Source of the DNA: Escherichia coli | GTDB taxonomy: Bacteria; Pseudomonadota; Gammaproteobacteria; Enterobacterales; Enterobacteriaceae | Length of the DNA: 64,000 nt | Assembly: GCF_003334335.1 (NCBI RefSeq) | Contig: NZ_QOWQ01000020.1 | Direction: 5' to 3' (one strand) | Shown here: in pieces, positions 1 to 52,781 of the stretch | Numbering within the stretch: the first letter of the stretch is position 1 | Layout: each line of letters opens with the position of its first letter | Program-made: the position numbers and the translations under genes | The notes under the pieces: model-generated | Told to the model about the DNA's origin: nothing | The model's database searches: none | What the model saw: the letters and a program-made list of their open reading frames with translations, nothing else

Positions 1-62
1 AGTGGTGGCGCATTATAGGGAGTTATTCCGGCCTGACAAGAGGAAATTTAAAATAATTTTCT
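1..62 (-). promoter_or_regulatory. rRNA P1-type promoter with UP element (inferred rrnA P1); transcribes leftwards out of the window
   Basis: Reverse complement of nt 1-62 gives an A/T-rich UP-like tract, TTGTCA (-35, about nt 34-39), 16-nt spacer, TATAAT (-10, about nt 12-17), GC-rich discriminator GCGCCACC and a start near nt 3. This is the signature of E. coli rrn P1 promoters; the rrnA assignment is by synteny with hemG. Confidence 0.7.
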
Positions 63-88
63 GACCGCGCATTTTTTATTCTTTATGC

Positions 89-634
89 TTATTTCAGCGT
101 CGGTTTGTCGGTTAAATGGGCGATTTCTCGGGCGAAATTCGCCACCTGCTCCCAATCGGTATAGACAACTTCTTTGCGCGTATCCGTTTCACCGCCTGAC
201 ATCTTCATAATCAGCTTGATCATAAAACGGTCGTACCAGCGATAACGTGGGTAACGCAGCGCCCCGGCAATGACCGCGCAGCGATCGGGACGCCATTGCG
301 AGTTCATCAGAAACTTGCGCGCGTAGCTGTTGGTCTGTGGAGTACGCTTCTCCGGTTTGCGCGCCACCAGATTCACGGAGTAAAAGGCGCTCGGCATCGA
401 ATTCAGCCGCGTCGCATGTTTTTTGACAAATTCCTGGAACGCTGAATGGTAGTGACCATAGCGAATAGAAGCACCAATGACCACACGGTCATAGTTTTCC
501 CACTGTGGTTCTTCAATGCGGTGCACATTGGCGACATCCGCCTGGATCCCCAGTTCTTTCAGTTCCGAAGCCAGGTAGGAGGCAATCTCGCGCGTTTGTC
601 CGTCCCTTGTTGAGAAAAGAATTAATGTTTTCAC
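89..634 (-). CDS. hemG: protoporphyrinogen IX dehydrogenase, flavodoxin-like (HemG)
   Basis: 181-aa ORF; translation [18 protein letters not shown]... recognised as HemG; synteny with trkH. Confidence 0.9.
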
Positions 635-645
635 GTATTACTCCA

Positions 646-2097
646 TCATTCACGCCAGAAAGTCGGGGTAAAGAGCACCAGCAATGTAAAGACCTCGAGA
701 CGACCAAACAGCATGTTGGCAATCAGGATCCATTTAGCCACCGGGTTCATACTGGTAAAGTTATCAGCAACCACGCCAAGCCCTGGCCCCAGGTTATTCA
801 ATGTCGCAACAACCGACGCAAAGGCAGAAAAGTCATCCACGCCCGTGGCGATAATCGCCAGCATACTGACAATAAACACCAATGCATAGGCGGAGAAAAA
901 TCCCCAAACGGCTTCGAGGATACGTTCCGGCAGTGCGCGATTCCCCAGCTTAATGCTATAGACGGCGTTCGGATGCACCAGTCGTTTCAGCTCACGGTTC
1001 CCCTGCTTAAACAGCAGCAGGATGCGGATCACCTTCAGGCCACCGCCCGTTGACCCGGCGCAACCGCCGATAAAGGCTGAACATAAAAGCAGTACCGGCA
1101 AAAAGAGCGGCCAGCGGGCAATGCTGTCAGTTGTAAACCCGGCGGTTGTCGCCATCGACACCACCTGGAAAAACGCCTGGTTAATTGTCATCAGCGCCGA
1201 ACTGTAGACATTATGAAACCACAGTACGAGGGTACAAATAACCACCAGCGTAAACTGTACGCCGATAAACATGCGAAATTCCGGATCGCGCCAATAAACC
1301 TTCAGACTACGCCCACTTAACAGTGAAAAGTGCAGACCGTAGTTACAGCCGGAGATCAGCAGGAAGATAGCAATGATAGTGTTAATAGTCGGGCTATCGA
1401 AATAACCGATACTGGCATCATGTGTCGAGAAGCCGCCAATAGCGATAGTCGCAAAGCTATGGCCGATGGCATCAAAGGCATCCATTCCGGCAAACCACAA
1501 CGCCAGCGCACAGGCGACGGTCAGCAAGACATAAATCAACCACAGGGTTTTCGCCGTTTCCGCAATTCGCGGGCGCATTTTGTTATCTTTCAGCGGGCCG
1601 GGCATTTCTGCGCGATAGAGCTGCATCCCACCCACGCCGAGGATAGGCAGTATCGCAACCGCCAACACGATGATCCCCATCCCGCCAAACCATTGCAGCA
1701 TCTGGCGATAAAAGAGGATGGCGTGAGGGAGCGAATCCAGCCCCACCAGCGTAGTGGCTCCCGTAGTGGTCAGGCCAGAGAAAGATTCAAAAAACGCATC
1801 GGTAATCGTGAGGTTCGGGCTTTCCGAGAAGATAAAAGGGAGCGCACCGACGCTACCCAGCACGGTCCAGAACAGCACCACTATCAGAAACCCCTCACGG
1901 GATTTAAGTTCGCCTTTCTCTTTGCGGTTCGGCCACCACAGCATAGAGCCAATGGCGAGGGCGACAAAAAAGGTCTGGGTAAAAGCGCGGCCCGCTCCAT
2001 CCCGGTAGATGAGTGCTACCAGCCCAGGGATAATCATGGTCCCTGAAAATAAGATGACCAGTAGTCCAACGATTCGGGTAATGGCGCGAAAATGCAT
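646..2097 (-). CDS. trkH: potassium uptake protein TrkH
   Basis: 483-aa polytopic membrane ORF recognised as TrkH; 11-nt gap to hemG. Confidence 0.9.
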   Translation of the reverse strand: MHFRAITRIVGLLVILFSGTMIIPGLVALIYRDGAGRAFTQTFFVALAIGSMLWWPNRKEKGELKSREGFLIVVLFWTVLGSVGALPFIFSESPNLTITDAFFESFSGLTTTGATTLVGLDSLPHAILFYRQMLQWFGGMGIIVLAVAILPILGVGGMQLYRAEMPGPLKDNKMRPRIAETAKTLWLIYVLLTVACALALWFAGMDAFDAIGHSFATIAIGGFSTHDASIGYFDSPTINTIIAIFLLISGCNYGLHFSLLSGRSLKVYWRDPEFRMFIGVQFTLVVICTLVLWFHNVYSSALMTINQAFFQVVSMATTAGFTTDSIARWPLFLPVLLLCSAFIGGCAGSTGGGLKVIRILLLFKQGNRELKRLVHPNAVYSIKLGNRALPERILEAVWGFFSAYALVFIVSMLAIIATGVDDFSAFASVVATLNNLGPGLGVVADNFTSMNPVAKWILIANMLFGRLEVFTLLVLFTPTFWRE

Positions 2098-2135
2098 CTC
2101 TGCCGCTTCCTTAGTTCTGCAAAACGAAGTGGGGA

Positions 2136-2750
2136 TTATTCTTCAATCGCTAACAATTGCAATGAACCACGGCTAAAATCCGCCAGCTTTGCGGAAAATT
2201 CAGCCACTTTCGCCGCCGGAAGCGCCACCCGCAGCAGAACGAATGCCTGATAATCACTGTTGATAATTTTGCCGTCACACTGCCCCAGCAACGCTTCAAT
2301 GCCGGTTAACTGATGATATTCACATTGCAAAGTATATTCGGTTAATGGCGTCTTGCGTTGGGTCGTTAGCTGGCGCAGCGCCTGATTCACGCCGCCGCCA
2401 TACGCTTTCACTAACCCACCGGTGCCAAGCAATATGCCGCCGTAGTAGCGCACTACCACAGCGGTAATTTCCCCGACGCCGCTGCCCATTAGCTGGGCGA
2501 GCATCGGTTTACCTGCCGTTCCCGCCGGCTCCCCGTCGTCAGAGAAACCCAGCTGTTGAGAATCATCCGGCGCACCCGCGACCCACGCCACGCAATGGTG
2601 CCGGGCATCGGGGTGTTCTGCCCGCACCGATTCAACAAACGCTTTCGCCGCCTCAACGCCATCGGTATGCGCCAACATCGTTATGAAGCGGCTCTTTTTG
2701 ATCTCTTCAACGACCGTGACCGGTGCCGCAGGAATTAACCAGCTTTCCAT
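2136..2750 (-). CDS. yigZ: IMPACT-family protein YigZ
   Basis: 204 aa from the second ATG of the track ORF ([11 protein letters not shown]...); start overlaps the pepQ stop. Confidence 0.85.
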   Translation of the reverse strand: MESWLIPAAPVTVVEEIKKSRFITMLAHTDGVEAAKAFVESVRAEHPDARHHCVAWVAGAPDDSQQLGFSDDGEPAGTAGKPMLAQLMGSGVGEITAVVVRYYGGILLGTGGLVKAYGGGVNQALRQLTTQRKTPLTEYTLQCEYHQLTGIEALLGQCDGKIINSDYQAFVLLRVALPAAKVAEFSAKLADFSRGSLQLLAIEE

Positions 2751-6460: not shown

Positions 6461-7633
<1,173 letters not shown>

Positions 7634-7639
7634 CCACTT

Positions 7640-7832
<193 letters not shown>

Positions 7833-13277: not shown

Positions 13278-15520
<2,243 letters not shown>

Positions 15521-48517: not shown

Positions 48518-48724
48518 AAAAAAACGCCTGCTCTTATTACGGAGCAGGCGTTAAAACAGGTCTGTATGACAACAAGTGGGTGCTTCACTCAACGTTGTGT
48601 CCATGGTGTCTGATGAGGCATAAGCGACATCTGTCAGTGGACGATAAGCACCGTAAACGGCTCTGCGTCATTCCGGAGTTTATGAGGCACTAAGGCGAAC
48701 ATAAGAGATGGAATGAGCATCTAC
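48518..48724 (-). ncRNA. glmZ: GlmZ small regulatory RNA (SraJ/RyiA), activator of glmS translation
   Basis: 207-nt minus-strand element beginning GUAGAUGCUCAUUCCAUCUCUUAUGUUCGCC and ending in hairpin AACGCCUGCUCC-GUAAUAA-GAGCAGGCGUU plus U7; matches my recollection of E. coli GlmZ and its hemY-aslA position. Confidence 0.85.
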
Positions 48725-52344: not shown

Positions 52345-52421
52345 TGGTCGGCGAGAGAGGATTCGAACCTCCGACCCACTGGTCCCAAACCAGTTGCGCT
52401 ACCAAGCTGCGCTACTCGCCG
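52345..52421 (-). tRNA. proM: tRNA-Pro (UGG)
   Basis: 77-nt reverse-complement sequence CGGCGAGUAGCGCAGCUUGGUAGCGCAACUGGUUUGGGACCAGUGGGUCGGAGGUUCGAAUCCUCUCUCGCCGACCA; cloverleaf and UGG anticodon evident. Confidence 0.93.
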
Positions 52422-52463
52422 AAATACTGCTTTTTGAATTTTTAGTTCAATTCTTTAAAGTCG

Positions 52464-52550
52464 TGGTGCGAGGGGGGGGACTTGAACCCCCACGTCCGTA
52501 AGGACACTAACACCTGAAGCTAGCGCGTCTACCAATTCCGCCACCTTCGC
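52464..52550 (-). tRNA. leuT: tRNA-Leu (CAG), long variable arm
   Basis: 87-nt sequence GCGAAGGUGGCGGAAUUGGUAGACGCGCUAGCUUCAGGUGUUAGUGUCC...CCUCGCACCA. Confidence 0.93.
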
Positions 52551-52570
52551 ATTGTCACAACTTCTAATAA

Positions 52571-52647
52571 TGGGGTGGCTAATGGGATTCGAACCCACGA
52601 CAACTGGAATCACAATCCAGGGCTCTACCAACTGAGCTATAGCCACC
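52571..52647 (-). tRNA. hisR: tRNA-His (GUG) with extra 5' G
   Basis: 77-nt sequence GGUGGCUAUAGCUCAGUUGGUAGAGCCCUGGAUUGUGAUUCCAGUUGUCGUGGGUUCGAAUCCCAUUAGCCACCCCA. Confidence 0.93.
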
Positions 52648-52704
52648 ACTACAAATCTTGTTACGCGGTATTACTACCACCGCAGCTCAAGCGCCGGGAC
52701 TAAA

Positions 52705-52781
<77 letters not shown>

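Follow-up and report, generated by a model that had tools for sequence, protein, structure and literature searches.

The rrnA P1 promoter of Escherichia coli and a predicted array of Fis sites partly overlapping the 3' end of hemG

The closest described systems are the rrnB P1 and tyrT promoters of E. coli. At rrnB P1 the footprinted Fis sites are centred at -71, -102 and -143, and the promoter-proximal site I supplies most of the Fis activation. For tyrT, Lazarus and Travers are said to have described in 1993 a helically phased arrangement of three Fis sites, the first two at -71 and -91 and the third at -122, and rrnA itself was reportedly the subject of a footprinting study by Hirvonen et al. 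in 2001. The murI gene contains Fis sites II and III of rrnB, and purU contains a site of tyrT (bioRxiv 10.1101/2024.03.27.586983). Three to five Fis sites are present at every rrn P1 according to Maeda et al. (2015, PMC4696680), whose gel shifts agree with the earlier site count for rrnA; the study gives site numbers and no positions. PMC5179076 holds no information on Fis sites, and a literature search on hemG together with rrsA found nothing relevant. It is already known that rrnA P1 depends on Fis, and the hemG/rrnA overlap is the same arrangement as that of rrnB with murI and of tyrT with purU. The theme, in which compact bacterial genomes write the upstream activating regions of stable-RNA promoters over the 3' ends of neighbouring genes, is equally familiar; the cross-genus data reported here provide a tidy hemG/rrnA example of it, with invariant spacing and position-locked Fis motifs, and leave current understanding unchanged.

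The UP element, -35 hexamer, 16-nt spacer, -10 hexamer, discriminator and +1 A of the rrnA and rrnB P1 promoters are identical, and both have Fis site I with its centre at -71. Like murI, hemG is co-directional with its operon, stops some 80 bp before +1 and has distal Fis sites (predicted ones, for hemG) in its coding sequence. The two loci differ in the upstream gene itself, in the sequence of site I (GAATAAAAAATGCGC in rrnA vs GGTTGAATGTTGCGC in rrnB) and in the distal sites, which are predicted at -91 and -111 in rrnA whereas those of rrnB are at -102 and -143. The rrnC P1 promoter shares its sequence with rrnA P1 through most of Fis site I, but the gene upstream of rrnC, yieP, is divergent, leaving that operon without a same-way coding overlap of its activating region. 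tyrT resembles rrnA P1 in being a stable-RNA promoter with a Fis array, one tyrT site lying within the co-directional purU frame; it differs in serving a tRNA and not an rRNA operon, in its core promoter and in its third site, reportedly at -122 as opposed to -111. By analogy, the predicted distal array of rrnA, at 20-bp spacing, resembles the tyrT upstream activating sequence.

The window, by which we mean the whole 64,000-nt stretch of DNA analysed here, contains in positions 1-63, read on the minus strand, the full set of rrn P1 elements (Table 1). An earlier note made from the sequence had called the reverse complement of the first 62 nt an rrn P1 promoter starting transcription at about nt 3. 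All of the elements that it named were found at the positions it gave, and the A at window 3 corresponds to +1 through its identity with rrnB P1, whose start site we take to be established. The same note had placed the beginning of the window inside the promoter, which is slightly imprecise: the window begins at transcript +3 and includes all recognition elements, and what falls outside it is the transcribed leader with P2 and the operon.

Table 1. Coordinates of rrnA P1, the predicted Fis sites and hemG in the window
Feature	Window position	Strand	Sequence	Remarks
Minus-strand read	63..1	-	AGAAAATTATTTTAAATTTCCTC-TTGTCA-GGCCGGAATAACTCCC-TATAAT-GCGCCACC-ACT	
rrnA P1 +1	3..3	-	A	By identity to rrnB P1/rrnA P1; transcription exits the window leftwards
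Discriminator	4..11	-	GCGCCACC	G+C-rich
-10 hexamer	12..17	-	TATAAT	
Spacer	18..33	-		16 nt
-35 hexamer	34..39	-	TTGTCA	Near-consensus
UP element	about 43..63	-	AGAAAATTATTTTAAATTTCC	A/T-rich, -40 to -60; identical to the rrnB P1 UP element
Predicted Fis site I	67..81	-	GAATAAAAAATGCGC	Centre -71; score 13/13; intergenic
Fis-like site II	87..101	-	GACGCTGAAATAAGC	Centre -91; score 9; over the stop codon (89-91) and codons 178-181
Fis-like site III	107..121	-	GCCCATTTAACCGAC	Centre -111; score 11; hemG codons 172-176 (AHLTD)
hemG, menaquinone-dependent protoporphyrinogen IX dehydrogenase, 181 aa	89..634	-		ORF; co-directional with rrnA

The -10 hexamer is a consensus match, the spacer is 1 nt under the optimum, which is typical of rrn P1 promoters, and the sequence between -10 and +1 belongs to the G+C-rich discriminator class (GCGCCNCC). 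The A/T-rich block of the UP element is unchanged in position in 10 other genera. A consensus scan returned the rrnA P1 site with an 11/12 match and a 16-nt spacer, against an expectation of 1.2 promoter-like sites per kb in shuffles. Such a rate of false positives, general to consensus scans, is what would speak for a chance match without function, a reading to which we assign a negligible probability. In this case, however, the 11/12 hexamer match is combined with an UP element and a discriminator, and the 36-nt P1 core has a single occurrence in the 64 kb window and none in 100 dinucleotide-preserving shuffles. The sequence is moreover identical to that of the most-studied bacterial promoter, rrnB P1, and it is kept in 10 other genera as well as in E. 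coli, where the hemG-P1 junction was present in 5424 of the 5426 complete genomes.

We compared the window with the P1 regions of all seven rrn operons of MG1655. Not a single base differs between rrnA and rrnB from -68 to +290, nor between rrnA and rrnC from -74 to +101. The first 62 nt taken alone thus fit rrnA, rrnB and rrnC equally well, P1 being identical from -68 or -74 to +3, and one could suppose that the promoter belongs to rrnB or rrnC, or that it is an isolated copy of P1. We hold this to be extremely improbable, as farther upstream than -75 rrnA alone matches the window, with hemG in the place where rrnB has murI and rrnC has yieP, and the genomes that are 100% identical over window 1-2500 continue into 16S, tRNA-Ile, tRNA-Ala, 23S, 5S and mobB. 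That 2500-nt segment was found in all 5426 complete E. coli genomes searched and is 100% identical in many E. coli chromosomes including K-12 MG1655; the sequence upstream of rrnA in MG1655 is identical to the window at 417 of 417 nt. An annotated MG1655 record has the 5' end of 16S at +293 of the P1 transcript, 290 bp away from the first nucleotide of the window on its left side, with tRNA-Ile, tRNA-Ala, 23S, 5S, mobB and mobA after it. The leader between P1 and 16S contains P2 (TTGACT...TATTAT) and boxA, in line with the layout expected of an rrn P1: 16S about 290 nt away, P2 some 120 bp downstream and a leader with boxA. Because the 16S-Ile/Ala tRNA-23S-5S-mobB/mobA context is that of rrnA, with trkH-hemG upstream, Ile and Ala spacer tRNAs, and mobB and mobA downstream, we assign the operon to rrnA; NC_000913.3 names the genes at the junction hemG and rrsA. 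The 16S gene of rrnA had been predicted beyond the left edge, and leftward extension in annotated genomes places it there, which excludes a left flank devoid of an rRNA operon; the expected alignment to rrn P1 regions is likewise seen in the identity to the P1 regions of rrnB (-68 to +290) and rrnC (from -74). The sequence-only call was therefore accurate, and the edge promoter fixes the identity and orientation of the window as E. coli, K-12-like, with rrnA directly to the left. We consider it very nearly certain that the minus strand of window 1-63 is rrnA P1, with a putative array of Fis sites lying partly over the 3' end of hemG.

Since rrnA P1 is identical to rrnB P1 from -68 to +290, we infer that the mechanism described for rrnB P1 applies to it as well. 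P1 is a sigma-70 promoter, and its transcription would start from the A at window 3 and proceed leftwards via P2 and the boxB/boxA leader into rrsA. Its UP element would recruit the C-terminal domains of the RNA polymerase alpha subunits (alpha-CTD), and Fis bound at -71 would contact alpha-CTD and thereby activate transcription. The discriminator and the 16-nt spacer would give rise to a short-lived open complex, the instability of which would in turn make the promoter sensitive to ppGpp/DksA and to the concentration of the initiating ATP. Growth-rate, ppGpp/DksA and iNTP control, as well as Fis- and UP-dependent activity, are accordingly to be presumed for rrnA P1 from its sequence. The part of the mechanism specific to rrnA would be the distal Fis-like array at -91 and -111, over the end of hemG.

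The hemG stop codon, TAA, occupies window 91..89 and is separated from the -35 hexamer by 49 bp, in keeping with the distance of about 50 bp that had been noted earlier. Between this stop codon and P1 no intrinsic terminator was found, and folding of the RNA from window 135..1 gave a stability no greater than that of shuffled sequences (z = 0.62). We scanned the region for Fis sites with a score (maximum 13) for the 15-bp core that rewards the flanking G (-7) and C (+7), the A/T richness of the centre and the Y-R steps at +/-(3-4). Applied to the rrnB sites at -71, -102 and -143 the score gave 10, 10 and 13 of 13, and scores of at least 10 arise in the window at a background of 0.48 per 100 bp. 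The motif features behind the score are described in PMC4784862. The predicted rrnA sites at -71, -91 and -111 follow one another at 20-bp intervals, and site I is the only 15-mer with the maximum score in the 64 kb window; it sits in the 25 bp that separate the UP element from the hemG stop codon. A -71 site with further sites upstream is thus present at the motif level, as judged by the motif score and by the positions in 10 genera. The earlier note had expected the Fis sites to overlap the 3' end of hemG. A motif scan did find sites at -71, -91 and -111, and the overlap holds, at the motif level, for the latter two, whereas the strongest site, at -71, is intergenic. A fourth candidate near -134 was dropped, position -7 being T in all taxa and a score of 10 being reached in only 2 of 10 genera.

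A scan of reference genomes with the 29-nt P1 core pattern returned 8 loci, mostly rrnB/murI, with hemG present only at one from Dickeya, and comparators were instead taken from HemG homologues and their contigs. This added nine junctions, from Salmonella, Citrobacter, Lelliottia, Raoultella, Kosakonia, Enterobacter, Klebsiella, Cronobacter and one JGI genome. The comparative set consists of one genome per genus from related taxa, and the counts given below are not independent events. In every junction compared, an rrn P1 -10 hexamer lies 65-84 bp after the hemG stop codon. Measured from the hemG start codon, the -10 hexamer lies at a distance of 617 nt in 10 of 10 Enterobacteriaceae genera, while the position of the stop codon varies among the ten by 18 nt (534-552 nt). 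In Dickeya this distance is 627 nt, the additional 10 nt corresponding to one more helical turn. Dickeya oryzae ZYY5 has four rrn P1 promoters with the exact 29-nt E. coli core CTTGTCAGGCCGGAATAACTCCCTATAAT; all four have the discriminator GCGCCTCC, their upstream regions differ, and one of them follows hemG.

When the Fis scan was anchored on +1 and run from -640 to -63 (578 positions) in the ten genera, only three positions scored at least 10 in at least seven of the ten: -71 (8/10), -91 (9/10) and -111 (7/10). The next best position reached this score in 4 of 10 genera. The G at -7 and the C at +7 of the motif are invariant in 11 taxa at the -71 site and wholly or almost invariant at -91 and -111. 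At -91 the G...A/T5...C frame is kept at a fixed distance from +1 while the remaining bases change, and the DNA in which it lies differs between genera, consisting of coding sequence in some of them (together with the stop codon in E. coli) and of intergenic sequence in Raoultella and Cronobacter. Constraint on the protein cannot explain the conservation of the -91 frame. At -111 the central Leu codon is the rare TTA in 7 of the 8 genera that have Leu there, TTA making up 13% of hemG Leu codons, and the third positions beside this codon vary across genera.

It might be argued that the -91 and -111 matches are by-products of hemG coding constraint and of A/T-rich stop codons, with only the -71 site acting on P1. 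The -111 15-mer encodes a conserved AHLTD or AQLT(N/A) motif, the conserved protein motif EIA(Q/H)LT could largely account for conservation at this position, and an invariant Ala codon begins with the G at -118. In addition, the E. coli -91 site scores only 9 and is weaker than its counterparts in other genera, and in rrnB P1 site I is, by established knowledge, the main activator. Against these points stand the -91 frame, which keeps its distance to +1 whether the underlying DNA is codons, stop codon or intergenic sequence, and the retention of the rare TTA codon in 7 of 8 genera while adjacent third positions vary. The register from hemG to P1 is furthermore without indels over 10 genera, the sites are spaced at 20 bp, and no position in the rest of the 578 nt shows comparable conservation of the motif. 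On balance we regard the by-product explanation as unlikely.

The fixed 617-nt register, the one-turn insertion in Dickeya and the retained TTA codon lead us to favor the reading that the last ~10 codons of hemG and its stop codon are likely under double constraint. This segment would be coding sequence and upstream activating region at once, with Fis presumably occupying the -91 and -111 sites. Two further data sets are supportive rather than decisive, both coming from small and phylogenetically related samples. Synonymous diversity is 0.37 in hemG codons 145-177 vs 0.51 elsewhere in the gene (permutation p = 0.011), and among five divergent E. coli strains the final 112 nt of hemG contain 1 variable site vs 31 in the other 434. 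A constraint acting across the whole of the last 112 nt was considered and rejected, since third positions vary between genera and the reduction is modest. As no terminator separates hemG from P1, the array may also be imagined as a roadblock: Fis bound to it could end trkH-hemG transcription and shield P1 from read-through, which is pure speculation. The joint reading, in which a phased Fis array places the end of hemG under double constraint and perhaps also acts as roadblock or insulator, strikes us as improbable.

Several observations were made on the window as a whole. It is the reverse complement of K-12 ~3,971,156-4,035,241, from wecC to the start of rrnA P1, and is K-12-like without being MG1655 (99.93% identical, with 28 mismatches and 4 gaps). 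The fadA-fre intergenic region (window 7633-7824) contains a REP/BIME array of ~99-bp repeat units, with a match at 7692-7769 to the Rfam family naRNA4 (nucleoid-associated ncRNA 4), and the array is one unit (~99 bp) shorter in the window than in MG1655 NC_000913.3. Known RNAs were recovered as well, namely EsrE (14915-15166), GlmZ (48518-48724) and the argX-hisR-leuT-proM tRNA cluster (52348-52781).

Searches also returned P1 matches in other records. Four matches to the P1 segment were on plasmid-classed records, for example NZ_OZ547001.1, a 267 kb record that matches window 1-71 at 100% identity and has no feature annotated there; such matches would mean either that rrn P1 copies exist on secondary replicons or that the contigs are mis-classed. 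NZ_JAHZMP010000136.1 (504 bp, coverage 0.66), from the assembly of the Firmicute Terrisporobacter mayombei DSM 6539, is E. coli murI-rrnB P1 sequence and almost certainly entered that assembly as an E. coli contaminant. Lastly, hemG-bearing draft contigs span 80-92 kb in many genera. This matches the distance between the end of rrnC and rrnA P1 in E. coli, about 92 kb, and suggests synteny across Enterobacteriaceae for both rrn operons at the ends and for the block that they enclose.
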